From Candidatus Aminicenantes bacterium (GTDB lineage Bacteria > Acidobacteriota > Aminicenantia > UBA2199), in NCBI GenBank assembly GCA_026393835.1, contig JAPKZK010000020.1:13034-77033 (forward strand): a stretch of DNA of 64,000 bases, given 5' to 3'. The notes under the pieces are model-generated. The model worked only from the letters and a program-made list of their open reading frames with translations. It was not told the origin of the DNA and did no database searches. Positions within the stretch are counted from its first letter, which is position 1; the number at the start of each line of letters is the position of its first letter. Positions 5,871 to 57,791 of this stretch are shown here, piece after piece. Both the position numbers and the translations under genes were made by a program.

Positions 5871-6284
5871 TTATTTTAAAAAATTGGAAATACTTTCACT
5901 TAATTCTTTTTTTTGAGATGCCTTTATTTCACATTGCCATATGATCATATATTTCCAGCAAAGGAGTTCCAGCCGCTTATAATTCGCTCTGTCTCTTTCG
6001 GCATTACCGGTAAGTTTTTTTTTCCAGAAATCGGCATTTGCAGTAGGTAAAGCGGAACGTTTACATCCCTCATGCCCATGCCAAAAACAACCGTGCACAA
6101 ATATTACTTTTTTATACTTTGTAAAAACCAAATCCGGGTTTCCCGGCAAATCTTTTTTATGTAAGCGGTATCGATATCCCATTGAGTGAACCAATTTCCG
6201 GATAAAGACTTCCTGTTTTGAACCTGTCGGTTTAATTTTTCTCATTATTTCCGAGCGTTTTTCGGGTGGGAAAATATCAGTCAC
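5871..6284 (-). CDS. vsr: Very-short-patch repair endonuclease Vsr
   Basis: 137 aa. RSEIMRKIK, PDLVF...KVIFVHGCFWHGH and ...FW..K...N..RD match Vsr. It overlaps the upstream C5-MTase by 8 nt, the classical dcm-vsr arrangement. Confidence 0.9.
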   Translation of the reverse strand: MTDIFPPEKRSEIMRKIKPTGSKQEVFIRKLVHSMGYRYRLHKKDLPGNPDLVFTKYKKVIFVHGCFWHGHEGCKRSALPTANADFWKKKLTGNAERDRANYKRLELLCWKYMIIWQCEIKASQKKELSESISNFLK

Positions 6285-7305
6285 GGTACTTCTCTAAATG
6301 GGAGATTATGTTTTTACTTTGAATATAGCTGAACTTCGGCGGTAAGGCATTTCCGATCAATAAGGCTATCGAGGTTTTGGATATATTCGTGGGGAATCGA
6401 TAATCTGGCGGAAACGTCTGCAATAAAGATGCTTCCCTGGCGGAAATAACCCGGTTCTCTTCCGGGTGTAAGAATCTGCCTTTGGAGGGATTCAAGCACC
6501 CGCTTGTTATTGTAGATGAGTAATCATCCCATCGTAAACGTCCATATACATCCTTAAATCCGACATTTTCTCGTTTATGGCATTTCAATATGAATTCAGC
6601 CGGTAAATCTGTCCTACTTCCCCCGTTTTTCGGTGTTTTTGTAATAATTTCCTTAACTTTTTGGGTATGGTTCGCCGTTATTCCATGAACGGGATCGTCG
6701 GTTCCTTGAACCGACTCAATGCCCCCGATAGTGTCTCTGACGGTCTTTCTTTCGCCGGTACCTTCGGCAACTTTCAATTCCAACTTTAGGGTCTTCAGCG
6801 CACCGACCAGTACGAGCCTTTTTCTTCTCTGCGGAACTCCGTAGGATTGGATATCCACAATCTCGACATTGACGGTATAGTATTTTTTAAGTTCGTCGCA
6901 CATTTCTTTAAAAAGGTCATAGTCTTTTAAACCCGGTACATTTTCCATCATAATTGTCGCGGGTTTTAAGCCTTTCACGAATCTTAAGAATTCCATAATC
7001 AGGTCGTTACGTTCGTCGGGGGCCGCTTTTTTTCGGTTGAGTCTTTTCATGGAGGAGAAGCCCTGGCAAGGCGGGCACCCAGCCAATAGGTGCGGTCTTT
7101 TACCGATCAATATCTTTTTCACGTCTTTTATTTTTAATTTCCGAATATCTTCTTGTAGAACCGTTGTTTCTGGGTGGTTCAGTTTATAAGTATTGACGGC
7201 ATCGGGGTCGATTTCGACGGCCAGTTCTACAGAAAACCCTGCCTGTTTCAAGCCTTCCGAAAGGCCACCGCAGCCGGAAAATAAATCAATTGCCGTGTAT
7301 CTCAT
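6277..7305 (-). CDS. dcm: DNA (cytosine-5)-methyltransferase
   Basis: 342 aa with motif I IDLFSGCGGLSEGL, motif IV GCPPCQGFS, motif VI MENVPGL, motif VIII QRRKRLVLVG and a C-terminal GNALPP. Confidence 0.9.
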   Translation of the reverse strand: MRYTAIDLFSGCGGLSEGLKQAGFSVELAVEIDPDAVNTYKLNHPETTVLQEDIRKLKIKDVKKILIGKRPHLLAGCPPCQGFSSMKRLNRKKAAPDERNDLIMEFLRFVKGLKPATIMMENVPGLKDYDLFKEMCDELKKYYTVNVEIVDIQSYGVPQRRKRLVLVGALKTLKLELKVAEGTGERKTVRDTIGGIESVQGTDDPVHGITANHTQKVKEIITKTPKNGGSRTDLPAEFILKCHKRENVGFKDVYGRLRWDDYSSTITSGCLNPSKGRFLHPEENRVISAREASLLQTFPPDYRFPTNISKTSIALLIGNALPPKFSYIQSKNIISHLEKYRD

Positions 7306-8770
7306 TTTCGAATATCTTTTTAAAATTTTTGGAAATTAAATCGGATACAACCTTCGGATAGTCTGGGGTTCCGTATCCGGATATTGTACTGAAAATATGC
7401 TGGATAAGGGGCGTTAAAAAGGGTTCGGATATTGTCGCGATTCTATTGAATTTGAAATCTCCAGCATATTTAAGGCTTCTTTCTTTTTTAGGAGTCGGAT
7501 TACCGTCTTCTTTCAATTCAATTTTTTGATTCATTAATTCTTGTGGGAAGAGTGAAAAATCTTTATAACCATTACTGCATTTTAGAAATGGTAATATCAA
7601 CATCCCTTTGATATATTCCGGGGAGGCTGAAAAGGAATTGAATTTTGCGTTGTCCATTAGTTTTTTTTTTTCTCGGGTCAGTGTGATTTGTTTTTTTAAA
7701 TGTTCATTGTCATTCTGTATTTCATGTATAGGGAGTAAATTTATATATCCGTAATTTTTGTGCCAAAATCTTGCCAAATCGCAATCGGCGGTAACGACTA
7801 TAAAGAATTTATTATCTTGTTCGAATATATCGCCCTTTCTGACGATATCGTCACTCGGGTTATAATAGAGCCTATATGCCCACAATTCTTGGGATATTTT
7901 ATCAATATTGGTCTTATTGTCGACTGGAAATTTACTCCGAGTATGTTCTAAGGCCGAAGATATTACATTATTTCTTATTTTTTCAGAAATCAAATCAAGC
8001 AATTGTTCCGATATTTCTCGATTTATCCCGCTATTTTTAAGGAATGCACATAATTCATCATCACAGACTAGATTGCCTTTTATCTTCTCTCCAATCATGT
8101 TTTTTAAATCGTCACTTATTTGTTCACCATTCCCCCCTAAAAGCTGCAACGTATCGTCAATATGCAATTCTCCCAATCGAATCAGTATCCTGTCCAATGC
8201 ATTTACCGTAGTTTTTCTTAATTGGCTACCGAATTTGAAAGAGAAATTCTCTTTATATAGAGCTCTTATTTTCGTCATTAGTTCAGTTGGGCTCGTTGAG
8301 TCTTTATTTAAATTGAGTTTATCGACATATTCCAATCTTTTTCTAAAACATTTAAATACATTATTATCTATTATTTTCTTAATTTCAATCTCTTTGTCGG
8401 CTCCTGAATAGATATATATATAAGAATAGCACTTATTTAATATTTCAAGTAATTTTTTTTCCTGGTCAATCGTAGGGGAAAAATCCCAATCGAAAATGAT
8501 GATTTCAACTCTAAGTAATTCTTTTTCATGGCTGTTTAAAAAAAACTCCGGATGGGTAAATGCATAAACATTCCAAATATAATCATTGCCTTCTTTCTCA
8601 TTCAAAAGTTTTGTAAATAATTCATATAAAGGAATCTCTTTTCCCCAATCCGCTTCTTCACTCAACAGTTTATGTAAAACAATTGAATTTAATAACGAAT
8701 TTTTTTTTATGTTGTGTGCGGCTGCAACTTGATTAATGCCGTCATCTATTATGCAGATTGAATATTGCAT
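7286..8770 (-). CDS. Hypothetical protein with an N-terminal receiver (REC)-like module and an uncharacterised C-terminal half (candidate effector)
   Basis: 494 aa, very AT-rich. ICIIDDG (aa 5-11), EIIIFDWDF (aa 89-97), YIYIYSGA (S122) and K140/K144 reproduce the DD...D...S/T...K spacing of receiver domains, with a ~40-aa insert after beta1. The C-terminal region contains GDIF..(9)..FIVVTADCDLARFWHK. I recognise no known nuclease family. It overlaps the neighbouring genes on both sides. Confidence 0.45.
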   Translation of the reverse strand: MQYSICIIDDGINQVAAAHNIKKNSLLNSIVLHKLLSEEADWGKEIPLYELFTKLLNEKEGNDYIWNVYAFTHPEFFLNSHEKELLRVEIIIFDWDFSPTIDQEKKLLEILNKCYSYIYIYSGADKEIEIKKIIDNNVFKCFRKRLEYVDKLNLNKDSTSPTELMTKIRALYKENFSFKFGSQLRKTTVNALDRILIRLGELHIDDTLQLLGGNGEQISDDLKNMIGEKIKGNLVCDDELCAFLKNSGINREISEQLLDLISEKIRNNVISSALEHTRSKFPVDNKTNIDKISQELWAYRLYYNPSDDIVRKGDIFEQDNKFFIVVTADCDLARFWHKNYGYINLLPIHEIQNDNEHLKKQITLTREKKKLMDNAKFNSFSASPEYIKGMLILPFLKCSNGYKDFSLFPQELMNQKIELKEDGNPTPKKERSLKYAGDFKFNRIATISEPFLTPLIQHIFSTISGYGTPDYPKVVSDLISKNFKKIFENEIHGN

Positions 8771-11472
8771 TAGTTGACCTCCTCCTTTTCGGCTGGTACT
8801 TTTTCAAAATCCAGAGTAAATTGAGCTCCTTTCATCTCCGGCAATCTATTCTTCGAGGACGTCCGGTATATATCGCCTTTCATAGATTGCATATAATGTT
8901 TACAAATATACAAACCAAGTCCACTCGGTGGAATTTTCAAACTGTAACCGGGTTCAAAGAGATAGGGCAATATCGCATTGTGAATACCGGAACCACTGTC
9001 GGTAAATAATAAGGTCCTATATTTTGAATCAAATTTAATTCGTATTATTTTTTCCATCGATTCGTCCTCGGTATCCAGCCAATATAAACTATTGTCGAAC
9101 AAATTTGAAAAAATTTGGACTATTTGTCCATATCGAGCGTAAATGAAAAAATCATCAGTGTCTTCAATTTCCGCCATGATATTGGCTTGCTCGAGCTTAT
9201 TTTTATAAATATCCAAGACATATTCCAATGCGTCAAATAGCTTAAACTTCACTTTTTTTTCGCTTTTTATCGCGCGTAATGGACTTAATCTTTTTAACTC
9301 TGAGTTAAGAGATGCTGATGACTCAACTATTTCCTTCATTTTTTCTTCATTAAATGGTTTTTTCTTAAGGGCTTCGGTTATTCCGTAGTAAAAATTTGAC
9401 GTAATTTTTGCAATTTCATGAATCGATACGGCTATCGCCAAACCGAAACCAGCTTGTTCCGTAAGTAGTTCTTTCTGTTGATTGATAAGTTTAAGACTGT
9501 CTCCTAAATTTTTAAGTGATAATTCGAGATTTATCAATTTTTCTTTTCTTTCTGAAGGTTCACCCATCTCTGCAAGAATGCCATGAGGATCTTCTTCAAT
9601 TGGATAATTATTTTTGATATTATTGACGAGAGTCTCATTTTGCTTCACAAAAGCCCTTAACTTCTTAGGATCTCTTATGATATCTTTCGTTAACGAATAA
9701 TAACTATCGCGTTTTCCTTGAAAATGTATCTCGACAAGAAGAATTACAGCTTTGGTAAGATTAATAAAATCATTATATGCGTCATTCTTTATTAGCCCCT
9801 CTCGATCGGTTTTATCTATTAAATTCAAATTATTGGTTTGATCCAATTCGATATTTCCAATCATATTGTAATAAGACATATGTTTTCCTTTTTTAATGTG
9901 CCTATTTGCAAGATCGAGCCAATCTATTTGCGCTCCCCATTCCGCCGGAAAGATATTAATGCCGTCTCTAAATACAGATATTCCGCCGAAATGATATAAA
10001 TAATCCAGCATTAAATCTTGATTAGGACCGTCAATCCAAGGAGGTTTTCTATACCAGACATCCAAATGCATAAAAAAAGCCCCACATTTAGGTTTTCTAA
10101 ACTTGTCGCTTAAAACGGCTTTCCATTTTGGCGATTCTATTTTTTTTAAATCAAAATTATTGTCTTTAATAACTTCCTCAGGCATAGGAACGGCCGGTTG
10201 CGGAGGTTTAAATTTAAGTGTATAATCCAATATACCTTCTTCAGTAACCAAACCGTCGAAGCTAAAAACAGGTTCAAATTCTTCCGAGATCAAACTGTCA
10301 GGCAAATCAGTATATTGAGGGCATTCTAAATAAGCCCGAAAAAATTCTTTTTTTGTCCCAGGGTGCGGATTGGGAGAGTTTAATCTTAAAATAGATAGAT
10401 TAAGTTCTTCAAGTGCGGTCTTATCCCAATGAAAGCCATCTCGTCCACCGAAAATGATCATTTGAGTGCCGGAACCCTTTATCCCATAATCACGAGTAAT
10501 TTTTTGACGCGTTAAACTTACACCGATCGAACTGAGATCGACTGTGGCATTCGATATGCAATCGAATTTATCCCAATCTATTTTTAAGACATATTCATAA
10601 TCCAATTCTTTTATTTTAGTATTAATGATCAGGTTCTTCCCCAGCCTATGCGAAGCGAATCTTCCGACTCCTTTTTCTCCCAATGGGATACGAGTTTTAG
10701 ATTCTTTTTTCAATTGCTTGGTTAAGCTGTCATAAGTCCCCAATGTTCCGGAGTCGAGAGCTTTTTGTCTTTCTCTTTTTATTTGTTCTTTGACATTGGT
10801 TTTAAGAGTCGATGCGGGGCGAAGCCAACCGACTTCAATAACTTCTTTCGTCATCCCGACTCCATCGTCTTCTACGACTATGACTGGTCCGTCATATTCA
10901 TTGAACTCATACATACTCTCGTCGATTATATGAAGCCCTTCGATTTTTTCAATTCTCACCCGGCAATAGCTTGCTTGTGCATCGTAGGCATTTTTTATCA
11001 ATTCGAGAATCCCTACTTTTTCAGAAGCGATCAATTGCTCACCCAATACTTTTATTAAATGGGCGTCGGATTTGAAATTTAATTGAATTCCCCCGTCGAG
11101 ACATATTTCGTCCAGGTCTTTTTCGGGTATTCTGCGAACCGCATCCTGGGGGTTGTAATGGGGCGCTGTTTCCCGCGGTCCTTCTTCGGTATCGAATGGA
11201 ACCGGGTTTGAGAACGGTTTAAAATCGCTTATCTCTACAAAATAAAAACCTTCCTCTCGTTGATCTTTAAAGGGCGGTTTCTTGATTTTCCCGTAACCGT
11301 AATATTCTCCCTTACCGTTTCGCTTCGGCTCATAATAAACAAACTCGATTACAAGTGCAGATAAAAGTTTGAGATACTTTCCCGGGAAATGGTAGAATTT
11401 TCCGACGAAATCGTTATATTCAGAGCCTTCTCTGCATTGGTCGAGCACTAAGAAGTTGTTTTTTGCGTCCAT
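8770..11472 (-). CDS. Three-module protein: N-terminal reader-like domain, MORC/HATPase_c_3-type GHKL ATPase, and a C-terminal HisKA-like plus HATPase_c histidine-kinase module
   Basis: 900 aa. GHKL module 1 has ELIKNAYDA (N-box, aa ~157), VEDDGVGM (G1) and GEKGVGRFA (G2). The C-terminal module has an H-box AVSIHEIAKI (His685, nt 9418..9420), an N-box IFSNLFDNSLYW, G1 DSGSGI and G2 SGLGLYICKHY. The N-terminal ~100 aa read KFYHFPGKY...FVYYEPKR...YYGYGKI...FYFVEISDFKPFSNPVPF. Confidence 0.6.
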   Translation of the reverse strand: MDAKNNFLVLDQCREGSEYNDFVGKFYHFPGKYLKLLSALVIEFVYYEPKRNGKGEYYGYGKIKKPPFKDQREEGFYFVEISDFKPFSNPVPFDTEEGPRETAPHYNPQDAVRRIPEKDLDEICLDGGIQLNFKSDAHLIKVLGEQLIASEKVGILELIKNAYDAQASYCRVRIEKIEGLHIIDESMYEFNEYDGPVIVVEDDGVGMTKEVIEVGWLRPASTLKTNVKEQIKRERQKALDSGTLGTYDSLTKQLKKESKTRIPLGEKGVGRFASHRLGKNLIINTKIKELDYEYVLKIDWDKFDCISNATVDLSSIGVSLTRQKITRDYGIKGSGTQMIIFGGRDGFHWDKTALEELNLSILRLNSPNPHPGTKKEFFRAYLECPQYTDLPDSLISEEFEPVFSFDGLVTEEGILDYTLKFKPPQPAVPMPEEVIKDNNFDLKKIESPKWKAVLSDKFRKPKCGAFFMHLDVWYRKPPWIDGPNQDLMLDYLYHFGGISVFRDGINIFPAEWGAQIDWLDLANRHIKKGKHMSYYNMIGNIELDQTNNLNLIDKTDREGLIKNDAYNDFINLTKAVILLVEIHFQGKRDSYYSLTKDIIRDPKKLRAFVKQNETLVNNIKNNYPIEEDPHGILAEMGEPSERKEKLINLELSLKNLGDSLKLINQQKELLTEQAGFGLAIAVSIHEIAKITSNFYYGITEALKKKPFNEEKMKEIVESSASLNSELKRLSPLRAIKSEKKVKFKLFDALEYVLDIYKNKLEQANIMAEIEDTDDFFIYARYGQIVQIFSNLFDNSLYWLDTEDESMEKIIRIKFDSKYRTLLFTDSGSGIHNAILPYLFEPGYSLKIPPSGLGLYICKHYMQSMKGDIYRTSSKNRLPEMKGAQFTLDFEKVPAEKEEVN

Positions 11473-24273: not shown

Positions 24274-25050
24274 TTAATCCTTCGATACATATTCACCAAA
24301 CCCCGCAGCTCTAAAATAAGCTCTACGAAAACCGGCAAATCGCTTATTTGCCCTGGTATCTTCTTTAATTTTATTAAGGAATTCATTTTTTAACTCTTGA
24401 TTATTGGTATATTTAGCAAGAATTATTGTTCCAACAATGGTTTGAAAACGATCAATTAGTCCCGTCCGCTCTTCCTTAACCTCCTCCTTATTGATTGCCG
24501 TTAATTCAAAGGCAGTTTTATGACCGCGGCCTTCCTTATCCAATCCCACGGCTATAACCAAGTTTTCATTAACTTCCTGCCAGACAAACCCGATAAATTT
24601 TTCCGGGTCCTCATCAACCGGATTTATTAATACCGGTTTTTCCAGTTTCAAGTCATCTTCACCTGTGAAAGCCCTTTTACTTCCTCCCAGTAGGGGAAAT
24701 TGAGTCTTTTTGATTTCCTGGTTGCAGCTTTTGCAGGCCAGGAAAAGGTTTTCCCATTCATAGGCCAGCCACCAATAACCGGGATGTCCATTCTCATCCG
24801 ATATTCCTGCTTTGGGCCGGAAATGCTCCACATCGAATTCCCGTTTATCCCGTTTACGTTCACAATAGCAGCATTTACCATCATGCCATTGCCAGAGATA
24901 TTCCTTGATATCGTGCCAGTGTGGTTCAAAATCCGCGGATTTTAAGTTAATTCCGGCTTTAATCATATTTTCGATTTGCTTTTTGGTATCCTCGACTTTT
25001 TTTGATTTCAATGATTCGGGTATAGGGGGCCGTGTTCTTAGTCTAATCAT
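24274..25050 (-). CDS. HNH endonuclease of the PtuB / TIGR02646-like type (Septu-like partner)
   Basis: 258 aa. GKCCYCERKR..FDVEHFRPKA...WENLFLACKSCNQ..K gives CxxC...H...N...CxxC. There is an 8-nt overlap with the upstream ATPase gene. Confidence 0.75.
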   Translation of the reverse strand: MIRLRTRPPIPESLKSKKVEDTKKQIENMIKAGINLKSADFEPHWHDIKEYLWQWHDGKCCYCERKRDKREFDVEHFRPKAGISDENGHPGYWWLAYEWENLFLACKSCNQEIKKTQFPLLGGSKRAFTGEDDLKLEKPVLINPVDEDPEKFIGFVWQEVNENLVIAVGLDKEGRGHKTAFELTAINKEEVKEERTGLIDRFQTIVGTIILAKYTNNQELKNEFLNKIKEDTRANKRFAGFRRAYFRAAGFGEYVSKD

Positions 25051-27376
25051 GTTCGTTTTTTGGGGTTGTTAATTGCTCGAGATTTTTCAACATCTTCTCC
25101 AGCCGCTGCTGCATCAGCCGGGTTTCAGCGTCTTCGGCCGCCCCGGGCAAGGTTTTTTCCAGTAACTCGCCTAATCCTTTAAATTCCTCTTCTTCTTGCT
25201 GCGTACGGGATCCTTTTAGATAGAGGGTCCCGAGTCTTTCCAGCTTTTCTGCTGTTTCCGGGTTGCGTGTGGTGGGCAGTTCAAACGCCTCCGATGTCAG
25301 GATTTGATCGGCCCTCAACCCACGCAGAGAAAAAATTGGGACTAATTCTACCGGTTCATTGGGTATCTTATGAAATCGTAATACCTGGTACTCATCATCA
25401 TCCAGGTCTGTAATACCGGCAACGCACATGGGAGAATGCGTTGCGGCAATAAATTGGATGCCGGGAAATTGTTCTTTTAACAATTGGATAATATATCGCT
25501 GCCACCGGGGATGTAAATGCTGCTCGATTTCATCCACCAGTACTATCCCGGATATCAGATTGGGGTCAAGCTGCCGGTCGTCCAGCATATTCCAGGCAAT
25601 AAGATCCAGCGCCCAGGCCGCCGTATTCTTATAACCATCTCCTTGATCTTGCAACCTGGACCGCCCCCCGGCATTAACCAATTCGATACCTCTGCCGGTT
25701 AACTCGATATGTTCCTTCCCGGTGAAAAGGAACAGTCTTTCGATTAACTTGTAGACAAGATAAAGTATTTCTTGTTCGGCCTCTCTTTCCCGGTCTTTAG
25801 GGGCCCTGCTTCGCGCTTCCAATGCCAGCAGGCTTAAACTGAGTTCCGGGCCCTGCAGGGGTTGGTCATAACGAAAAAGAGTTTCAACTGCTTCTATTAC
25901 CCTGTACTGTTCCGGTTGTTTCCTTAGTTCACTTAAAATCCGCCCGGCACCGTACCCGCAAACAAACAAAAGATGCCGGGGAAAATTCCCCGGTAATATG
26001 AGCTCGACTTCTCCGCTGTCGGAAATATAAAAATATTCCTTTCTTACCTGTTCGGAGCCATTCATCCGGTCGAAGCGGGTAACGATACGATATTGTCCTA
26101 TCCCGGGGGCATTCAACCGGATATCGATGGTTCCCGTCCGTTGGCCGTCTCGAATAAATTTTCCATGGAAATCGGCCAACAATGCCGAGGCATTAGGCTC
26201 ATCGCATATCCCCAGGATCAGGCAGCGGAGAAATGACGTTTTACCCGTGCTGTTATCTCCCAGTAAAAGGGTAAACAACGGCGTATTATTTTTTTCCGAA
26301 ATGAAACCGGCGGATAATGATTCGAACCCCTGGATATTTTCTAAACGGACCCCGGTTAGATAAAAGCTCTTTTGCTCCGATGGCGGCAAAGCGATTTTAC
26401 GCTTTGATTTGAAGGTAAAATAGAATCTTCCATCTTCGCTGTCCGGGTTGACTTCGGTGTTTTTTCTCCATTGTTCATGCTCAGGCAGGTATTTATAGAA
26501 TTGTACCGTTGTCTTACTTTTGATCAAATCGATCTCTACCAGGTTAAAGGAGTTTGGGGTTCGATGTGATGGCTCATCCATCAAATTACCGATCACAACG
26601 GCTTTACCTTTTGTCCCGGCACTGAAGGCAGCGATGGGTGTATGGGTGTGCCCGGTCATGATCATATCTGTTTTTCGCACCAGCAATTCTTTTGATACCT
26701 CATCAACCGGATGGAAAATGGAAAAAGGATGATGAAAGAAAGCAATAGAAAAATGCGCATTTTCATCTAAGGCAGCCAATGCGTTTTCCACCTGGTATAA
26801 TCCCAACGCCGGTTCTTCTTTGCCATCGATGCTGTAACCGGTGAATAAAGCGCTGTTCAGACCGACCATATTAATTTTGATCGATTGCCCCTGCTTATCA
26901 ATATCCATGGTTTCGACGAAACGGTAGGTGGTATCTGTAAATAGACGGCGCCCCATGGCCTTTTCGGCAAAGGCATTGAAAGCGGTAAATTTGCGTAAAA
27001 GTTTCGGCAAATAAAAGGAGTCGGTCAATAGTTTAGTAATGTCATCCTGGTTTTCAAATGAATACAAACGTTCAATATCTATATCCGAGATTTTTTCCCG
27101 TCGATTAATATCATGATTCCCCGGCACGATAAAAAGACGTTGCGCAGGTAAACCGGTAACGGTTAGAAGTTTCTCGCAAAATGATTCCGCTTCCTTATAT
27201 TCTTCCTCTTTGCCACTGGATGCAATGTCGCCGGAAATAATAATGAAATCAATAAGTTTCTCCCGGGCAACCAGATCTTTGATGGCGTCCAGCATGGAAC
27301 GGGTAACGATGTCCCCGGTTTTTCCCGGGTTGGCGCGCAACTGGAGATCGGATAAGTGAAGATAGCAAAGTTTCAT
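25043..27376 (-). CDS. Fusion of a calcineurin-like metallophosphoesterase (aa ~1-290) and an ABC/SMC-like AAA ATPase (aa ~340-720; PtuA/OLD-ATPase-like)
   Basis: 777 aa. MPE motifs are HLSDLQL, SGDIASSG, VPGNHD, FFHHP and TGHTH. ATPase motifs are LLGDNSTGKTSFLR (Walker A), GDGYKN (signature-like), VLVDEIEQHLHP (Walker B / D-loop) and ATHSP (H-loop). Confidence 0.8.
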   Translation of the reverse strand: MKLCYLHLSDLQLRANPGKTGDIVTRSMLDAIKDLVAREKLIDFIIISGDIASSGKEEEYKEAESFCEKLLTVTGLPAQRLFIVPGNHDINRREKISDIDIERLYSFENQDDITKLLTDSFYLPKLLRKFTAFNAFAEKAMGRRLFTDTTYRFVETMDIDKQGQSIKINMVGLNSALFTGYSIDGKEEPALGLYQVENALAALDENAHFSIAFFHHPFSIFHPVDEVSKELLVRKTDMIMTGHTHTPIAAFSAGTKGKAVVIGNLMDEPSHRTPNSFNLVEIDLIKSKTTVQFYKYLPEHEQWRKNTEVNPDSEDGRFYFTFKSKRKIALPPSEQKSFYLTGVRLENIQGFESLSAGFISEKNNTPLFTLLLGDNSTGKTSFLRCLILGICDEPNASALLADFHGKFIRDGQRTGTIDIRLNAPGIGQYRIVTRFDRMNGSEQVRKEYFYISDSGEVELILPGNFPRHLLFVCGYGAGRILSELRKQPEQYRVIEAVETLFRYDQPLQGPELSLSLLALEARSRAPKDREREAEQEILYLVYKLIERLFLFTGKEHIELTGRGIELVNAGGRSRLQDQGDGYKNTAAWALDLIAWNMLDDRQLDPNLISGIVLVDEIEQHLHPRWQRYIIQLLKEQFPGIQFIAATHSPMCVAGITDLDDDEYQVLRFHKIPNEPVELVPIFSLRGLRADQILTSEAFELPTTRNPETAEKLERLGTLYLKGSRTQQEEEEFKGLGELLEKTLPGAAEDAETRLMQQRLEKMLKNLEQLTTPKNEHD

Positions 27377-50407: not shown

Positions 50408-51664
50408 TTATTTTAATACCAGGCGCTCCATGTCGCCGTAATTTTCGTAAGATGAAGTGATGACCTGTTCGCCGGGTTTCAAGCCTTCCAGTACTTCGAA
50501 GAATTCCGGGTTTTGTCTGCCCAGCCGGATTTGTCTTTTTATGGCGTATTTTCCGGACGGGTCCATTATATAGATCCAATTGCCGCCGGTAGTTTGATAA
50601 AAACCACCCCTGGGAATAAGGATGGCTACGGATATGTCGCTCAATTGTAAGCGGATATGAAGGGTTTGGCCTCGCCTGATACCTTCGGCGTTTTTACCCA
50701 CAAATTCCATATCTACTTCAAACTGTCCGTTCCTGACCTCCGGGTAGACTTTACTTACTTTCAGATCAAAGGTATTGTCGGAAAAATCGAACTGCCCGGT
50801 TTTTCCTACTTCGACCCGGGCAATGTAATGTTCGTCGATGGGGGCCCTTACTTTGAAACCGGTTACGTCGTCGATTTGTCCCAGCCTTTCGCCCGGGGCT
50901 TTGGACTGGCCGACTTCCGCCAATAGCGAAGTAAGGTGACCCGAGATGGGGGCCTTGACGGTCAAATTTTCCAGTTGCGCTTTGAGCAGGGTCAGGCTTG
51001 CTTCCATCTGTTTTACCGAGACTTCCAATTGCTTTACCTGTTCCTCGCTGAATTTTAGATCCTTTTCCTGGCTTTCGATAGTTAATTCTCTATTCTTTTT
51101 CTGGAATTCATATTCATCTTTCAAATCATCAAAATCTTGTTTTGAGAGATAGCCGTCCTTGAATATTATCTCGTTGCGTTCAAACCTGCGTTTGATCCTT
51201 TTTAAGAAATAATCCCCTTCCGTCCGTTGTCTTTTCAGTTCCAGGCGGTTTCGTTCCAGTTGCAGGCGGGTAGTACGAAGGTCATTGCTGGCCCGGTTGA
51301 TTTGTGCTTCGTTATTTAAGAGGGTCATCAGTAAGTTCGTATTTGACAGCATCAGGATTATATCGCCTTGTTTTACCTGGGCGCCGGCTTCAAGGTAGAT
51401 TTTTTCCACGCTTCCGCCGATGACGGAATCCAGGTAAATGGTCCTATGTGGGAGTACATTTCCAATAATAGGAATAAATTCCTGGAACGGTCCTTTTGTC
51501 ACGGTGGAGATGGTCACACGTTCTTTTTCCACATTCAGGGTAGATCTTCCTGCTTGAAAGATCAGCAGGTATCCGACCACCAGGATAAATAGGCCGATAC
51601 TACTGTATGTTATTATCCGTTTCGGCGGCCACTTCTTTTTTTCTATTGCTTTATCCATACCCAT
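50408..51664 (-). CDS. HlyD/MacA-family periplasmic adaptor subunit
   Basis: 418 aa with an N-terminal TM, a lipoyl/coiled-coil hairpin and a beta-barrel pattern (APISGHLTSL...). Confidence 0.8.
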   Translation of the reverse strand: MGMDKAIEKKKWPPKRIITYSSIGLFILVVGYLLIFQAGRSTLNVEKERVTISTVTKGPFQEFIPIIGNVLPHRTIYLDSVIGGSVEKIYLEAGAQVKQGDIILMLSNTNLLMTLLNNEAQINRASNDLRTTRLQLERNRLELKRQRTEGDYFLKRIKRRFERNEIIFKDGYLSKQDFDDLKDEYEFQKKNRELTIESQEKDLKFSEEQVKQLEVSVKQMEASLTLLKAQLENLTVKAPISGHLTSLLAEVGQSKAPGERLGQIDDVTGFKVRAPIDEHYIARVEVGKTGQFDFSDNTFDLKVSKVYPEVRNGQFEVDMEFVGKNAEGIRRGQTLHIRLQLSDISVAILIPRGGFYQTTGGNWIYIMDPSGKYAIKRQIRLGRQNPEFFEVLEGLKPGEQVITSSYENYGDMERLVLK

Positions 51665-51916
51665 GTTATTTTTCTCCTAGGGATAGTATTAGCAAGAAGC
51701 GTGCCGGAATTGAAGCAAGTATATTTTCAGCCTGGAGATAAACGCTTTATTGCCGATTCCCGGTTTTCGTTCCAAATAAAGTTTATTGTTTACCGGGGTT
51801 TGGGTGGCCGCAGTCGTACACTGGGTGTCCGCTGGCGTACAGTTTTCTCCCGCTTGTAATAAAGCGGAATTTTTGTTATCATATAGCTGGAAGAATAGAT
51901 AAACAGGAATACCGAA

Positions 51917-52798
51917 ATGGACACTGGAACCAAGATCGATCTTTTTGAACTGGCGGATGCCAATAAAAAACAGTTAGAATCGGAATATCAACGCATTAAA
52001 TTGAAATCCGATCGGAAGAAATCCGATCTGTTGGAAAGCTTCGGCGCCAGGGTTAAAAATGAATGGCATCTCTCGATAAATATGCACGACTGGCCTCTGT
52101 TCGAAGTTTTGGATTCCGGGAAATACGTGAATGTCTATGAACTGAAAGACAATCAAGCTGAACAACTGATGAAAGTGGGAAAACTGGACGATTCCAGTGC
52201 GAAAAGCGCGAAAGAAGAAGCAGTAAGAAAACATTTAAAGACCTTTTACGAAGGGCGGAAAATCTTTGACTCTTCAATTAGCAAAGGGGAAAAAGCCAGG
52301 TATGCCGCTCTGAACATAGGGGGAGTGGGAACAACCGGGTATGGCCGGTACTGTATTGTTATTAAAAGGGAAAAAGCTGAAAAATATAAAAGATTGGCAT
52401 TTATCAAAGAAGACAGCGCAGTAAGTTACGTGGATAATGGATGCCTTTTGCTGGATAAATTGATGCGGGATGTGACAAATAAAGAATGCGTCGATATCCT
52501 GGCTGTGGTTAAGCATGAGAACGAGATAGAAACCATATCGTCCGAAAACTGGAATAGAATGGTTTGTAATGATTCAAGCAATATTGAAGCCGTGACCCTG
52601 GATGATATTTTAAGGTCTCACATCAAGTGTGTAAGGATTGATAAAACATATTATAAGGAAATATATTGGGATTCTCTGGCTAAGATATTCAACTCGGAAT
52701 TAACGGAGATTGAGCGGTACCGCTTAACCCTGGTAAAAAAGGTATTTAAAGAACTGGAGAAACGTGGGATCGAATTGGAGATCATCGATGAAAATTAA
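51917..52798 (+). CDS. Hypothetical protein A of a three-gene operon (no recognised domain)
   Basis: 293 aa, with no signal peptide or TM. Its stop overlaps the start of the next gene. Confidence 0.5.
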   Translation: MDTGTKIDLFELADANKKQLESEYQRIKLKSDRKKSDLLESFGARVKNEWHLSINMHDWPLFEVLDSGKYVNVYELKDNQAEQLMKVGKLDDSSAKSAKEEAVRKHLKTFYEGRKIFDSSISKGEKARYAALNIGGVGTTGYGRYCIVIKREKAEKYKRLAFIKEDSAVSYVDNGCLLLDKLMRDVTNKECVDILAVVKHENEIETISSENWNRMVCNDSSNIEAVTLDDILRSHIKCVRIDKTYYKEIYWDSLAKIFNSELTEIERYRLTLVKKVFKELEKRGIELEIIDEN

Positions 52799-53408
52799 AA
52801 TGATTGCGATTGCGCCGTATGACGGGTGGGCGTTTATTATAAAAGAGGAACGATTGTATTTGCTTCGTCCCCCTTACCGGTCGAAGGATTTACTGGAAGT
52901 CGAGGAAAAAGACCTGGAAAATGCCATTCATAAATGCGGATTCCAGGAATGCGCTCAGGCCTTTAATAACCTTGCCGAAGTCATCGGTTTTCTGGACGAG
53001 AAATACATTGAGGCTATGAAGAAAAGGGGGATTGCACTCCCGGATAAAGAACAATTGAAAGAGCTCCTGGAGTATGCTACGGAGGAGATATTGACAGGAT
53101 ACCTTGAGAAAGCGGAGCGGGAATTCATTCCACAGCGAAACCTGGATGCGGCGGAATCTATTGCACTCGCATTACTGCCGTTGGAAAAAGTTATACAAAA
53201 TGAAGTGATTTTTCAAAAAACAATCGCTATCTTAAATCGCTGTAAGGAAGAAAGGGAAAAGCTGGATAATATTATTAAGACGCCCAATAAAACACTCGGT
53301 ATATTTCCGATAGCAGGATCAATATATACTGTAGAAGCAATTTTTGAATATATGGAATTCGTTTATATGAAGAAACAATTACTCCCGGTTGGGGAGTTAA
53401 GGGGGTGA
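52788..53408 (+). CDS. Hypothetical protein B of the three-gene operon
   Basis: The ORF track starts at the GTG at 52764. The ATG at 52788 (MKIKMIAIAPYDG) has GGAG 7 nt upstream and overlaps gene A by 11 nt. Confidence 0.5.
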   Translation: MKIKMIAIAPYDGWAFIIKEERLYLLRPPYRSKDLLEVEEKDLENAIHKCGFQECAQAFNNLAEVIGFLDEKYIEAMKKRGIALPDKEQLKELLEYATEEILTGYLEKAEREFIPQRNLDAAESIALALLPLEKVIQNEVIFQKTIAILNRCKEEREKLDNIIKTPNKTLGIFPIAGSIYTVEAIFEYMEFVYMKKQLLPVGELRG

Positions 53409-53411
53409 TTG

Positions 53412-55187
53412 ATGGAAACCATCACTTTTTATTCTTATAAAGGCGGCGTTGGGCGGACTTTGTCCCTTGCCAATATTGCCGTTTACCTTTCACGATTTGG
53501 ATTAAATGTATGTATCGTCGATTTCGACCTTGAAGCGCCGGGCATCCATTATAAGCTGCAATCGATTTTTCCTGGTCCCGTTGAAAGAGGATTGGTGGAT
53601 TATATCTATGAGTTTACATCAGGTGGAAGTATTCCCGGCTCCCTTAACGACTATGTCTTGACCGCTGAAAATATACCCGAGGGAGAAGGAAATATCCAGT
53701 TGATTCCCGCCGGGAATGTTTTATCGTCGGAATATTGGAAAAAACTGGCTTCCATCGATTGGCACAGTTTGTTTTATGAAATCGGAGGGGAAGGAGTACC
53801 GTTTTTTCTTGAATTCAAGGAAAAAATTCGCAGCGAACTCCAACCCGATATTTTATTGATCGACTCCCGGACCGGGATTACCGAGATGAGTGGGATATGC
53901 ACGGCGCTTTTACCAGATAAGGTGGTTTTTTTGATCACCAACAACCGGGAAAATATCGAAGGTTCACGCCAGATAATGAGAGGCATTCAAAAGGCAAAGC
54001 GTTTTAAAGGACAGAAACCGATAGAAGTATTTTTTGCCTTAACTCGAATCCCGAACCCGCAAAATGCCGAAGAAAATGAAAATGAACAAAAAATAATCGC
54101 TAGTATTCTGAGTTTCTTAAATGAGAGTACGGCGAACCTGGAAGACCAGTTGAATATTCCTGAAATCTTCGTACTGCATTCCGACAGGGACCTGGAACTT
54201 TCGGAATCGTTACGGTTAAATCAATATGAATTCAGAGATAAACCATTGACCCAGGATTATTTGAAGCTTTTTTTAAAAATAATCCCCAGGGAAATCACGG
54301 AGTCAAAAATTAATAGTGTTGTTGAACGAGTAATCACAGAAGATCGATTGCTTGAAGAACCGGATAAGGTGCAGGAAGAATTGGAGGCTTTGGCGGCGTC
54401 CTATCCATCCCCACAGACCTATGAAAAGCTGATTGATTTTTATATTCTTCGTAACATGGATAAATCTAAAATATTAGCTGTGTACAGCAGCTTATTTAAA
54501 GTCACCCGAACGCTCAGTGAAAAAATGTATGCAAAATTCATTCAGGCATTTAAGAAAGCGAGTATTTATTGGATAGAGAAAGATATTCTGGAAAAGGTTG
54601 AAGAATATCTTCAATCGAATCCAGGCGAAAAAAAGGACATAGCACTGAAATTAGCGGATGCATATTATGATAAACGTTTGTATGAACGTGCCTTAGAATG
54701 GTATTTAAACCTTTTGGATAAAGTGAAAGATCCATCTGAAATTTTGGAGAAAATATTTGCTATCTATCGTCAGGACAAAATAGGAAATGGGAGGGATGTA
54801 TTAAAGGTGTATGTAACATATAATTCTCTCATTTTAGAAAAAACTTCGTTGAAGATAAAGGCTTTAGAGGCGCTTTATGAAAAAGGTGAAATCGAACAAG
54901 TTAAAAAATTGATCGATCGAATCGATATTACTGAAGATTCTTTTATTGAGCATTCATCCGGATTATTTTATGAAATAATAAAATCCTACGGAAGTGAAAA
55001 CACCGTGAATGAGAAACTCTCCGCCTGGCTAAAAATTGCATTGAAGAGGCGAGATTCGGAAAGGGTGTACAAACTTGGGAGAATTTTTTTTGAACTTGGA
55101 AAAGCGGAGGAATTCAGGAAAGCAATACCTGAAGGTTTCCCAATTAGAGAAAAAATTTTAAATGATTTAGAGCGGAAATTTCGGTAA
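53412..55187 (+). CDS. KGGVGR-motif ParA/MinD-like (SIMIBI) ATPase fused to a C-terminal TPR-like helical repeat array
   Basis: The ATG at 53412 follows GGGGGTGA and lies 3 nt after the gene B stop. It has the deviant Walker A FYSYKGGVGRTLSLAN, then VDFDLEAPG and LLIDSRTGITE. The C-terminal ~270 aa are helical repeats (YAKFIQAF..., ALKLADAYYDKRLYERALEWYL...). Confidence 0.7.
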   Translation: METITFYSYKGGVGRTLSLANIAVYLSRFGLNVCIVDFDLEAPGIHYKLQSIFPGPVERGLVDYIYEFTSGGSIPGSLNDYVLTAENIPEGEGNIQLIPAGNVLSSEYWKKLASIDWHSLFYEIGGEGVPFFLEFKEKIRSELQPDILLIDSRTGITEMSGICTALLPDKVVFLITNNRENIEGSRQIMRGIQKAKRFKGQKPIEVFFALTRIPNPQNAEENENEQKIIASILSFLNESTANLEDQLNIPEIFVLHSDRDLELSESLRLNQYEFRDKPLTQDYLKLFLKIIPREITESKINSVVERVITEDRLLEEPDKVQEELEALAASYPSPQTYEKLIDFYILRNMDKSKILAVYSSLFKVTRTLSEKMYAKFIQAFKKASIYWIEKDILEKVEEYLQSNPGEKKDIALKLADAYYDKRLYERALEWYLNLLDKVKDPSEILEKIFAIYRQDKIGNGRDVLKVYVTYNSLILEKTSLKIKALEALYEKGEIEQVKKLIDRIDITEDSFIEHSSGLFYEIIKSYGSENTVNEKLSAWLKIALKRRDSERVYKLGRIFFELGKAEEFRKAIPEGFPIREKILNDLERKFR

Positions 55188-55250
55188 GTTTTTGACTTCA
55201 TTTGGAGTGTGAAATGATGGAGGTGGGGAACAGGCAAAAAGTACTCACAA

Positions 55251-55361
55251 AATGTCTGAACCGCGGATTACGCTGAGATAACACTGATGACGCTGATTAG
55301 ACACTCTTATAATGTAATCTGAGTAATCTGCGCCATCTGCGTCATCCGTGGTTCAGACATT
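55251..55361. repeat. 111-bp imperfect palindromic element with 18-bp terminal inverted repeats
   Basis: aatgtctgaaccgcggat (55251..55268) pairs with atccgtggttcagacatt (55344..55361), 17/18 complementary. The interior holds nested pairs (tgatgacgc/gcgtcatc) and aatctg motifs. Confidence 0.65.
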
Positions 55362-55505
55362 CTATCAGAGAGTGCAATAATTGAGGTATCTTTAGTAGGG
55401 GTATCTTTAGGTGTCAGGCCAATTTTTCCCCTATCTCAGGAAGCCCCATGGAACAAAAGAAAAGTAAACCGGCTGTTCTGATTTGGAAAAATTTTGAAAA
55501 TATGT

Positions 55506-55534
55506 TTGACAATATATGAAATTTCAATTATGTT
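55506..55534 (+). promoter_or_regulatory. Putative sigma70 promoter for the 73-aa ORF
   Basis: TTGACA-17 nt-TATGTT, followed by a GAGGTG RBS 6 nt before the ATG at 55553. Confidence 0.45.
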
Positions 55535-55552
55535 AAAGGCTGAGGTGATAAA

Positions 55553-55774
55553 ATGGATACCATACAATTAGGCGTTGATGAACGGATACTTAAGAAATTC
55601 GGAGAAGAAATGATCAAGGAATATGTGAACAAAATGATCTCCTTGAAAAAATTGGAATTTTTCACGGATTTGATCTCAAAATCCATTGAGATGCCTCAAG
55701 AAGAATATGATAAGGAACTGGAAGAGATCCGAAAGGAAAGCTGGCAAGAATATAAAAAAGACCTCCCTTGCTAG
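55553..55774 (+). CDS. Small acidic helical protein (73 aa), possibly antitoxin-like
   Basis: Good promoter and RBS context, but no motif recognised. The stop codon lies in the target-site duplication of the adjacent MITE-like element. Confidence 0.5.
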   Translation: MDTIQLGVDERILKKFGEEMIKEYVNKMISLKKLEFFTDLISKSIEMPQEEYDKELEEIRKESWQEYKKDLPC

Positions 55775-55907
55775 AGCCTATCCGAAAACTCATGGATGCT
55801 TTAAAATTGTAGGGAACAGGCATTGCCTGTTCCCACTGGCATTTGAGGAACAGGCAATGCCTGTTCCCTACCAATTTACGCCCCGTGCATACCTTTTCGG
55901 ATAGGGT
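55774..55907. mobile_element. 134-bp MITE-like element with 14-bp terminal inverted repeats, twin GTAGGG hairpins inside, and a flanking 7-bp direct repeat CTTGCTA
   Basis: The left end (55775..55788) reads agcctatccgaaaa and the right end (55894..55907) reads ttttcggatagggt, 13/14 complementary. CTTGCTA occurs at 55767..55773 and 55908..55914. The interior holds gtagggaacaggcattgcctgttccc and its inverted copy. Confidence 0.65.
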
Positions 55908-56045
55908 CTTGCTAACGAGAGATAATAAGCTCTATAAGGGCTTGAAAAAAAAGCAATTTGAAAATGTTATTTTATTCGATAGCTTTTTGAAATATTTGGA
56001 TGAAAAGTAGGCCCTGGGGGCAGGTCAATTGTCAATTGGGATTCG

Positions 56046-57791
56046 CTAACCCTCTCTGATGGTTACTTCTTTGCCATTAAATACAATGGCCAATTTCTTA
56101 TAATTTTTTACTCCCCTTTCCACCAGTTCTGTTTCGTACTTTTTGTCTTCGATCTGTTTTAACGCAGCATTCACGGCTGATTCCACGGTTTCGTTATCGT
56201 CCGCATCGACGGTCTTGAATTCGATCACATAACCGGTTAAACGGAGATCATGGGGGATAATCGAAATATCATATCTGCCATACCCGGATTCACGGTTGGA
56301 TTTTATTTCATGGGTATTGGAAATCCATACCAACAATCCCGCCACCAATGCATGATATACTTTCTCCGGCTCAGACCCGAAATCATGATAACTGAAAACA
56401 GCGGCAATCACTTTTCGCAGCATTTTTTCAAAAAGCTTTACATCCCCGTCGATTAATGCTTTAAGCATGATTTCCAATTTGTTATTTTCGATTTTATCGG
56501 TAAAATACCGCTGGATAATCCGTTTATAAATGGTCCTCACTTCCATATTGGGTATGGACAGCTTATAGTAGATACTCCCGGAGGCGTCCATCCGCTTTTC
56601 GGTCTGCTTTAAGTATCCACCCATCAAGAGAAAACTCCATAAGGAATCTTCATCGGATTCGATGTCTTTCAAGATAATATTCTTTTCGATTGTCTTTTCT
56701 ATAAACTCTCCCCGGAAGAGTTGTTCCATTTCCGCCTTGAGTTCTTTGCCCCCCCTGGACAGTAAGGATTCCACAACTTTGTTGTCGGAAGTATTAATCC
56801 AGTAAGGTTCCAATTCTTTTCCTTTGCTGGCGAGAAAATTAATGACGGACCAGGGATTGTAAATAATGGTGTTACCGAACTTATATCCGTTATACCACTG
56901 CTGGACCTGTTCATACATGTGGAGGACATTGAAATCCGCCAGCATTGTTTCCACTTCCTTTTCCGTGAAGCCGAATTTATCGTCGAATTCCTCCGCCAGG
57001 AGGGTATACACGCCCGGGTTGTTGAGGCCGGAGAAAATCGATTCCCTGGCGATCCTCATAATCCCGGTAATAACACTTTTTTCCAGGTACTGGCCGGTAT
57101 CTTTCAGGCCGGCGCACAGGAAATTGCGCATAAAATCGATGATTTCATCATAATAGTTGTTGGTAAAGCCCGCATGAATAGGGGCGTCATATTCATCGAT
57201 CAAAATAACCGCCCGCCTGCCGTAATACCGGTTTAAGAAAATAAGCAGATATTCCAGGCTGTTTTCATAGTCTTCCTTTTCGCCCTCCAGGTCGATAATT
57301 TTTTGAAAATAATCCAGTTCAAAGGGCATTAGTACTTTACTGTTTAAGAGACAGCAATGCCTGGCATACTCTTGCCGAATAAGTTTTTTTATTTTCCTGT
57401 AGGTTGTTTCCCAGTCGGATTCCTTGATGTTTTTAAAGGTTAAAAAAATAACCGGGTGTTGGCCCATTTTCTCCAGGTATTGAGGTCCTGCTTTAGAGAT
57501 GGCCAGGGAATCGAATAGACTTTTATAGGTGTTGCCGGGTGTAACCGGTTTACTTTCCAGGAAAGGGGCTCCGGTCTGCCGGGGCAAGTCTTCGGGGCAG
57601 CAGTCGTAAAAGTACTTTAGCATTGAAATATTAATGGTTTTCCCGAAACGCCGGGGACGGGGAAGAAGTAAAATCGTATCCCCCCTGTCGATGATTTCCT
57701 TGATAAAAAGGGATTTATCTACATAGTAGTAATTCTCAGTAATAATTTTTTTAAAATCGGACTCACCGACAGCCAGTTTTTTCATATCCAT
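56046..57791 (-). CDS. AAA-ATPase-like plus PDDEXK_9 nuclease-family protein, copy 2
   Basis: 581 aa with LAVGESDFKKIITENYYYVDKSLFIKEII....LLPRPRRFGKT, VILIDEYD and a C-terminal GRYDISIIP....GYVIEFK. Confidence 0.7.
   Translation of the reverse strand: MDMKKLAVGESDFKKIITENYYYVDKSLFIKEIIDRGDTILLLPRPRRFGKTINISMLKYFYDCCPEDLPRQTGAPFLESKPVTPGNTYKSLFDSLAISKAGPQYLEKMGQHPVIFLTFKNIKESDWETTYRKIKKLIRQEYARHCCLLNSKVLMPFELDYFQKIIDLEGEKEDYENSLEYLLIFLNRYYGRRAVILIDEYDAPIHAGFTNNYYDEIIDFMRNFLCAGLKDTGQYLEKSVITGIMRIARESIFSGLNNPGVYTLLAEEFDDKFGFTEKEVETMLADFNVLHMYEQVQQWYNGYKFGNTIIYNPWSVINFLASKGKELEPYWINTSDNKVVESLLSRGGKELKAEMEQLFRGEFIEKTIEKNIILKDIESDEDSLWSFLLMGGYLKQTEKRMDASGSIYYKLSIPNMEVRTIYKRIIQRYFTDKIENNKLEIMLKALIDGDVKLFEKMLRKVIAAVFSYHDFGSEPEKVYHALVAGLLVWISNTHEIKSNRESGYGRYDISIIPHDLRLTGYVIEFKTVDADDNETVESAVNAALKQIEDKKYETELVERGVKNYKKLAIVFNGKEVTIREG

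Follow-up and report, generated by a model that had tools for sequence, protein, structure and literature searches.

A three-gene cassette of Candidatus Aminicenantes with two orphan families and a KGGVGR-variant ParA/MinD-like ATPase: a candidate conflict system

What is a ParA/MinD-like ATPase with an altered nucleotide-binding loop doing in the company of two small genes that match no recognisable family? The question is raised by a stretch of 64,000 nucleotides from a Candidatus Aminicenantes bacterium (GenBank assembly GCA_026393835.1, contig JAPKZK010000020.1, positions 13,034 to 77,033 of the forward strand; this whole stretch is called the window below), in which genes A, B and C follow one another closely and the last encodes a KGGVGR-variant ATPase domain joined to a tail of TPR-like repeats. 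A preliminary description of the window, made from its sequence, had proposed that the three genes form a conflict system centred on the nucleoside triphosphatase (NTPase) encoded by C. Comparison with related loci makes it quite probable that the cassette serves in conflict or defence in one way or another, and reveals that its invariant core is the A-B pair, the ATPase being the usual, non-obligatory third component. The conflict reading rests on genetic linkage, immune-type swapping of the C tail, the contexts in which the wider ATPase family is found, the accessory-gene behaviour of the cassette, and a gradient of conservation along it. In its more specific form, that of a self-contained, horizontally mobile system of three components, most likely directed against phages and ending in abortive infection or dormancy, in which the tail of C would sense and A would execute, the reading has slightly better than an even chance of being right.

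Related cassettes were collected by a pattern scan with a profile of B over one genome per species, and A, B and C were assigned among the open reading frames (ORFs) with hidden Markov models, which yielded 18 genome loci; a metagenome scan added 57 loci, and counts cover the contigs with enough room. Every one of the 18 genome loci has A ahead of B, and as far as contig ends allow the three genes are adjacent and in the same order. The bacterial hosts belong to at least five phyla and comprise Aminicenantes and other Acidobacteriota, Clostridia, Verrucomicrobiota, Armatimonadia and Ca. Deferrimicrobium; the archaeal hosts are Methanophagales, Altarchaeum, Methanosarcinales and Methanobacteriota. 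Among the metagenome loci A is upstream of B in 44 of 54, with five further fragments, and C is downstream in 39 of 44. The preliminary description had been prepared to give up the proposal if homologues of the three genes proved to be unlinked elsewhere; their linkage in every genome locus and in most metagenome loci disposes of that objection.

The spacing of the genes recurs as well. Checked on the ORF list and the raw sequence of the window, the gene structure first described stands at every coordinate, including the lengths of the products, an 11-nt overlap that places the ATG of B inside the last 11 nt of A, a gap of 3 nt between the stop of B and the start of C, and a Shine-Dalgarno-like purine run before each gene (AGGAA at 51905 for A, GGAG at 52777 for B and AGGGGG at 53400 for C). 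The start of B is supported by the beginning, MKIKM, that its homologues share in a 55-sequence alignment, and all three products are soluble by their maximum 19-residue hydropathy (below 1.5). Of 62 non-redundant loci, 54 have an overlap between A and B, most commonly of 11 nt, and B and C are separated by at most 26 nt in 50 of 53. A and B form a translationally coupled pair.

The idea that the system is centred on its NTPase does not survive the comparison, because A and B are also found without it. Two loci, L090 (6165-7861) and L091 (6165-7882), possess A and B and lack C, and in both the last ~20 residues of B give way to an extension of ~100 aa. In L048 (2818-4570) B is fused to RRM_1, and in L087 (9163-12326) the A-B pair is followed by an unrelated 543-aa protein that has no PDB match; neither locus has a KGGVGR ATPase. 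Decay of the cassette is frequent: three loci (L031, L032 and L047) are remnants with a fragment of A, a truncated B and no C, and A is broken in L023, the syntenic relative of which, L022, is intact. In L079 (6483-7859) an ORF is a chimera of the first ~50 residues of the ATPase and a CN_hydrolase domain, most likely the trace of a deletion in a cassette that has decayed.

ATPases of the ParA/MinD type usually carry a deviant Walker A motif of the form KGGxGK[ST], and they are ATP-sandwich dimers in which the signature lysine of this motif acts in trans. Residues 2-193 of C match the NCBIfam family NF047398, 'KGGVGR-motif variant AAA ATPase', with 165 bits (E 2.4e-48, cutoff 90), against 18-27 bits for the MinD, ParA and BcsQ equivalog models (cutoffs 158-508); Pfam CbiA is matched with 31.3 bits (cutoff 25.4). 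C thus does not group with the partition or BY-kinase ATPases, a grouping that the preliminary description had named as evidence against a conflict role. The motif KGGVGRT, at residues 10-16 (53439-53459), is deviant, as had been noticed, but it is not the usual deviant motif either: the signature lysine (K10) is kept, and the canonical P-loop lysine is replaced by Arg15. The replacement is found in 115 of 120 orthologues of C, and KGGVGR[TS] as a whole is kept in the same proportion. The motifs of the nucleotide site, which include the switch DFDLEAPG (residues 37-44), the Walker B motif DSRTG (residues 151-155) and an NN motif, are all at least 90% conserved, and K10, D37/D39 and D151 are invariant or at least 90% conserved, which indicates that the nucleotide site is under strong selection. 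C therefore has the score and motif of NF047398 and, of the SIMIBI features, the signature lysine, the DxD switch I/A' and Walker B, and it lacks the canonical P-loop lysine; such a site would bind nucleotide with altered hydrolysis. The nearest relatives in the PDB are distant ParA, ParF and MinD proteins, with the alignment confined to the surroundings of the P-loop.

The tail of C is the most variable part of the cassette. The TPR-like repeats that had been seen by eye are weak in the window's single sequence, in which all TPR matches lie below the Pfam cutoffs (the best, TPR_16, has 18.7 bits against 32.7), and clear in a family profile of 77 sequences, which matches LapB, SRP72 and NatB as well as consensus TPR proteins (4.7e-10) in the region from about 370 to 580. 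With A and B constant, most loci, the window's included, have a TPR-like tail; in L024/L056 the tail is a canonical TPR_12 array, in L053 and L058 it is TIR_2, in L016 and L064 NACHT, and in L015, L066 and L075 NACHT with an FGE-sulfatase domain; L082, in which C has 1,256 aa as in L015, is probably of the same NACHT and FGE type. The NF047398 domain is kept in all TPR_12-tailed and NACHT-FGE-tailed variants that were scanned, and the two TIR-tailed proteins give ParA/CbiA-type Pfam matches. TIR, NACHT and FGE tails are hallmark immune modules.

These fusions also bear on an analogy drawn in the preliminary description, that C follows the layout of STAND proteins, an NTPase with a repeat sensor, and uses a different class of NTPase. 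The analogy of switch and repeat sensor holds, but in several cassettes the KGGVGR domain stands N-terminal to a real NACHT(-FGE) module and so is no simple stand-in for a STAND NTPase. This arrangement puts the domain in the effector/adaptor position of an NLR-like protein, that is, on the output side of the sensor. The combination of NACHT with FGE/C-type-lectin has been described as a putative antigen sensor that bears effector or adaptor domains at its N-terminus (PMC10907252). No STAND NTPase domain (NB-ARC, NACHT or other) appears in Pfam and NCBIfam scans of the window's own C.

More distant members of the KGGVGR family are found in contexts that point the same way. On the Thiodictyon plasmid pTs417 (L093, 3132-6401) a KGGVGR-like ATPase, an overlapping upstream gene of 149 aa and a downstream KAP NTPase lie between the pglX gene of BREX-2 and a 'phage resistance protein'. 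This set is probably an instance of PDC-M28, a three-gene 'guilt-by-embedding' candidate that is embedded in BREX, DISARM or type I restriction-modification loci (Payne et al., bioRxiv 10.1101/2024.01.29.577857). The ATPase domain of C matches the PADLOC model PDC-M28B at 4.4e-29 (99.8 bits), and both systems are three-gene cassettes. In PDC-M28, however, the ATPase is the middle gene and is shorter (profiles of 327-438 positions), whereas the ATPase of the window comes last and is TPR-tailed; PDC-M28B is its only match of the set, and A and B match no PADLOC model. Judged by these profiles, the cassette is not PDC-M28. Other family members include a KGGVGR domain fused to TIR among other TIR genes on a Sinorhizobium plasmid, ATPases that follow an MqsA-like gene on Rhizobium and Massilia plasmids, the Massilia copy adjoining an integrase and an insertion sequence (IS) element, and an ATPase of Brevibacillus brevis, preceded by genes for a membrane protein and a DUF6575 protein, in an island that also has serine recombinase, HNH, SRA-HNH and AAA_15 genes. 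The DUF6575 protein was considered as kin of B, and its comparison by hhalign was negative. The association of KGGVGR ATPases with TIR and CHAT effectors, named in the preliminary description, is borne out for TIR by L053, L058 and the Sinorhizobium plasmid, but no association with CHAT was seen. Taken together, the immune-module tails of other cassettes and the relative within BREX-2 sustain the description of the cassette as a candidate conflict system.

Neither A nor B had shown a recognisable domain at the outset, and both keep that status: B has no match in Pfam, NCBIfam, PADLOC, PHROG or the PDB, and A has none in the same collections by sequence or by profile. The fold comparisons that had been suggested, of profiles against the PDB and of models with Foldseek, gave no usable match for either. 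For B, an AlphaFold2 (AF2) model with a predicted local distance difference test (pLDDT) score of 83.6 places a small beta domain at the N-terminus and a helical bundle after it, and no fold in the PDB or BFVD matches it at E 0.01. No similarity of B to ParB or MinE was found by sequence or fold, and no DNA-binding domain is recognisable in it. Every KGGVGR-linked variant, whatever the type of C tail, retains the C-terminal peptide of B, [RK]xx[QG]-h-h-P-h-G, and the variants in which this peptide is replaced are exactly those without C. Small partners of ParA/MinD ATPases regulate the dimers by docking a terminal peptide, as in MinD-MinE and ParA-ParB. The peptide of B tracks the presence of the KGGVGR domain and not the type of tail, and B is proposed to dock on that domain.

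Gene A belongs to a large family, an exhaustive profile search recovering 558 clusters at 50% identity (E <= 1e-3), all members of which are single-domain proteins of about 275-295 aa; long N-terminal extensions of some homologues are spurious GC-rich ORF extensions. Profiles built from 20 and from 104 sequences have zero PDB matches at E <= 10, PHROGs give no match, and 104 members scanned singly against Pfam and PADLOC give scattered single matches only. An AF2 model from the 20-sequence alignment reaches a pLDDT of 49.5, and its Foldseek matches are meaningless. The 104-sequence alignment has a set of near-invariant, mostly polar residues (N55, N72, R114, Y129, G138, G143, C146, S167, K199, E224 and R240), as would be expected of an active site or a ligand site. 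Their order and conservation, compared by eye with known motifs, do not fit ART (R-S-E, H-Y-E), macro, GIY-YIG, PD-(D/E)xK, HEPN, the glycine loop of protein kinases or clan-CD peptidases. The roles suggested at first, of A as candidate effector and B as candidate adaptor, fit the data; B is a candidate neutraliser as well.

The evolution of the cassette is that of an accessory element. The 127 ORFs that flank the 18 genome loci include no shared conserved neighbour, their 161 Pfam families occurring at most three times each, and remnants of decayed copies occur. In the close relative L027 the downstream core genes are 98% identical in nucleotide sequence to those of the window, with synonymous divergence (dS) of 0.009-0.085, whereas the cassette block (51845-55365) is 87.8% identical with dS of 0.30-0.65, and upstream of 51845 synteny is lost. 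The excess of dS over that of the flanks and the broken synteny indicate that the cassette sits in a variable hotspot and has been exchanged by recombination and not passed on together with its flanks. Selection, measured against L027 as the ratio of nonsynonymous to synonymous divergence (dN/dS), is purifying throughout: the ATPase has 0.12, B 0.16, A 0.28 and the TPR tail, which retains 68% amino acid identity, 0.31. In distant loci identity is 46-83% for the ATPase and 25-61% for A and B, and the tail, the fastest-evolving part, becomes undetectable in the distant half of the family. Conservation thus declines in the order ATPase, B, A, TPR tail. The coordinates of the cassette and its parts are collected in Table 1.

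Table 1. Positions in the window of the cassette genes, the domains of C and the bordering elements
Feature	Position	Strand	Basis or detail
Gene A	51917-52798	+	ATG 51917, TAA ending 52798; 293 aa
Gene B	52788-53408	+	ATG 52788 (MKIKM...), stop 53406-53408; 206 aa
Gene C	53412-55187	+	ATG 53412, stop 55185-55187; 591 aa
C residues 1-290, KGGVGR-variant ParA/MinD-like ATPase domain	53412-54281	+	NF047398
C residues 291-370, helical linker	54282-54521	+	Intermediate conservation; 27-54% identity to distant loci
C residues 371-591 and stop, TPR-like alpha-solenoid, candidate sensor	54522-55187	+	Family profile
Left edge of conserved cassette block, promoter-like site and Shine-Dalgarno sequence of A	51845-51916	+	L027 homology begins at 51845
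Conserved 3' non-coding element, right edge of cassette block	55188-55374	+	L027 identity and hairpin

How might the parts work together? In the mechanism proposed here the C-terminal module, a TPR-like solenoid in the window and NACHT-FGE or TIR elsewhere, would sense an invader-derived ligand, and ligand binding would lead the ParA-like domain to form an ATP-sandwich dimer, the P-loop arginine probably slowing hydrolysis to give a long-lived 'on' state. The tail peptide of B would dock on the ATPase domain, as the peptides of MinE and ParB do on MinD and ParA, while the constant residues 1-183 of B would hold A. Dimerisation of C would then release or activate A, a putative toxic effector enzyme, soluble and of 34 kDa. 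Taken by itself, the polarity of this scheme, with the tail of C sensing and A executing, stands just under an even chance.

Several observations weigh against the three-component system with a sensing tail. No member of the A or B family has been characterised, and the word enzyme for A is drawn from conserved polar residues only. The effect of the Lys to Arg exchange on ATP binding and hydrolysis is one that we infer. The TIR-tailed forms of C (L053 and L058) have no obvious sensor domain left, which suits the opposite polarity better. Enrichment near defence genes, suggested at the outset as a check, does not emerge from the 18 genome loci, the neighbourhoods of which are mostly housekeeping, with a handful of PADLOC matches. 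Finally, 72,556 plasmids contain no match to A or B, 50,697 phage records none to A or to the ATPase domain of C, and IMG/VR contigs none to B; given this absence, the mobility of the cassette is something we infer from its patchy distribution alone.

Of the alternatives, the one that survives best, unlikely as it is, keeps the parts and reverses their roles. A, B and the ParA-like domain would then be a conserved core for sensing or thresholding, and the tail of C the output, whether as a TIR NADase, a NACHT-FGE signalling arm or a TPR scaffold recruiting an effector encoded elsewhere. The TIR-tailed proteins, in which no other sensor-like domain is found, agree with such a scheme, as does the dN/dS of A, which is near that of the TPR tail, and passages of Kaur et al. 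2020 (PMC7159879) describe ternary systems in which a constant core is combined with variable C-terminal effectors that include STAND and TPR modules. Most cassettes, however, the window's among them, have a TPR-like tail in which no effector is recognisable, which would leave the execution to A all the same. In STAND systems, characterised or proposed, TPR and NACHT-FGE serve, moreover, as sensors; no other part diverges nearly as fast as the tail, and A-B pairs exist that have no C at all.

An improbable alternative is a tripartite toxin-antitoxin or addiction module, with A as toxin, B as antitoxin and C as regulator, the main role of which would be island stabilisation or stress response, not phage defence. 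The resemblance to tripartite toxin-antitoxin systems, including MqsA-like ones, is real in several respects: the first genes are small and overlapping, a toxin-sized gene preceding an antitoxin-sized gene with the 11-nt overlap, A and B occur as a stand-alone pair, other KGGVGR ATPases are paired with MqsA-type antitoxin-like genes, and the cassette lies within a variable hotspot. Against this, A and B contain no known toxin or antitoxin domain, B has no recognisable DNA-binding domain for autoregulation, and the TIR, NACHT and FGE fusions and the relative embedded in BREX-2 point to immunity. The boundary between toxin-antitoxin and abortive-infection systems is itself blurred, so this alternative overlaps the conflict reading.

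The superfamily of C also calls to mind housekeeping positioning of the ParA/MinD type, a very improbable explanation in which C would position a cargo such as chemoreceptor arrays and A and B would be cargo adaptors. Two archaeal loci, L007 and L008, adjoin che genes, but they are related and syntenic and are the only such loci of the 18. With MinD-MinE, ParA-ParB and ParF-ParG the cassette has in common the signature lysine, the DxD switch, Walker B and a small partner with a conserved terminal peptide; it differs from them in the loss of the canonical P-loop lysine to arginine, in a B protein that shows no likeness in sequence or fold to MinE, ParB or ParG, and in lacking a housekeeping or plasmid context. 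Nor would positioning lead one to expect tails swapped for TIR and NACHT, a patchy phyletic distribution, frequent decay, or dS values unlike those of the core flanks. Scarcely credible is a ParA-ParB-like partition cassette of an integrated mobile element, which would account for a ParA-family ATPase with two small partner genes and for the palindromic repeats that flank the L027 cassette, but not for an ATPase gene that comes last instead of first, the lack of a ParB-like domain, the absence of integrase, replication or transfer genes next to the window cassette, or the lack of plasmid, phage or IMG/VR matches for the cassette proteins searched.

How much of the conflict system proposed here is new? 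The ATPase domain family is already catalogued as NF047398, a relative is catalogued as a component of a PADLOC candidate, and the logic of a switch, a variable repeat sensor and an effector is known from STAND/Avs proteins and from Kaur et al. NF047398 shares with C its N-terminal 190 residues and the KGGVGRT motif, and defines the domain alone, not its partners, tail or function. The likeness to STAND/NLR proteins (Avs/AVAST and bacterial NACHT), which consists of a nucleotide switch, a fast-evolving C-terminal repeat sensor and the swapping of TIR and TPR modules, is one of analogy and not of membership: the NTPase of the window's C is of the ParA/MinD (SIMIBI) class, dimerising and not STAND-oligomeric, and its effector candidates are separate genes. 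Passages of Kaur, Burroughs, Iyer and Aravind (eLife 2020, PMC7159879) describe conflict systems in which 'inactive' domains of the MinD/ParA family, their P-loop predicted to be defective, are fused to AP-ATPase/STAND and kinase modules, and the KGGVGR-NACHT-FGE proteins found here fit what those passages say of the MinD/ParA domain; a term search of passages of that paper found no A-B partners. Of the vWA-MoxR-VMAP core of ternary conflict systems, vWA and MoxR are absent from the window cassette, which consists of A, B and C, and from its neighbours, an efflux set and a PDDEXK_9 gene, and they are not among the 25 most frequent of the 161 Pfam families in the neighbour census of the 18 loci. 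Literature searches on KGGVGR, on PDC-M28 and on ParA/MinD-like ATPases in anti-phage systems found neither the A-B pair nor the A-B-KGGVGR triad described. It may be proposed, tentatively and with clearly less than an even chance, that A-B is a new and widespread effector-adaptor pair, toxin-antitoxin-like, that plugs into interchangeable sensors through an Arg-P-loop ParA/MinD switch, that this is the first immune system in which a dimerising SIMIBI ATPase, and not a STAND, AAA+ or ABC protein, relays a sensor (TPR or NACHT-FGE) to an effector, and that A is an effector enzyme of a previously unseen fold.

The surroundings of the cassette in the window are much as first described, with an efflux set (HlyD / ABC / FtsX) upstream on the opposite strand and palindromic repeats downstream. 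Ahead of A, a promoter-like TTGTAA-17-TATCAT with TG (51854-51882) is a weak match to consensus only, and Rfam has nothing above threshold within 51000-56500. The 178 nt that follow the stop of C are 95% identical to L027, above the coding DNA (about 88%), and contain a hairpin with 33-nt arms (55244-55276 and 55336-55368) and an RNA minimum free energy of -64.3 kcal/mol (z = -4.6); a terminator, a stabiliser or a repeat like a miniature inverted-repeat transposable element (MITE) is possible. The palindromic repeat GGGAACAGGCAwTGCCTGTTCCC has five matches downstream of the cassette against about one expected. In the window it lies only on the 3' side (55223-55236 and 55802-55878); it flanks the L027 cassette on both sides (7302-7351 and 10981-11062) and precedes the decayed copy in L031, and it may be a recombination site like a repetitive extragenic palindrome (REP).

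Two genes beyond this element were considered as members of the cassette and set aside. A 73-aa acidic ORF (55553-55774), which has its own promoter-like site and no family match, lies inside an insertion of ~490 nt that is absent from L027. The gene at 56046-57791 on the minus strand, encoding AAA-ATPase_like (PF09820) and PDDEXK_9 (PF08011) domains, accompanies the cassette only in the lineage of the window itself; its dS of 0.29 against L027 is cassette-like, unlike the core flanks, and the variable hotspot may include it. In L024 (9367-12081) genes for an LRR-Roc-COR (ROCO) protein and for PDDEXK_2 come directly after the TPR_12-tailed C and share its strand, and a neighbouring conflict NTPase may be present there. 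Farther away in the window, a block on the minus strand (6277-11472) has a low GC content of 0.33-0.40, the value elsewhere being about 0.47. It contains the genes of a C5 cytosine DNA methylase, of a 494-aa protein that Pfam does not match and of a 900-aa protein with HATPase_c_3 and HATPase_c domains, and may be a second, horizontally acquired defence island. Also on the minus strand, 25043-27376 encodes a 777-aa protein with a calcineurin-like phosphoesterase (Metallophos) domain and AAA_15/AAA_21 ATPase regions, either SbcCD-like or akin to a defence-type ATPase-nuclease.

If the three-component conflict system is confirmed, it would add a family to prokaryotic immunity that is shared by bacteria and archaea, mostly uncultured anaerobes that are poorly covered by defence catalogues. 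It would define two orphan families, that of A with at least 558 clusters at 50% identity, one of them probably a new effector enzyme. A role would also be found for the KGGVGR ATPase family and for the 'inactive MinD/ParA-like' domains of conflict systems, and ParA-type dimerisation switches would be seen to act as immune signal transducers. The natural exchange of TPR, TIR and NACHT-FGE modules on a constant chassis of A, B and the ATPase makes the logic of sensor and effector in such a system directly testable.

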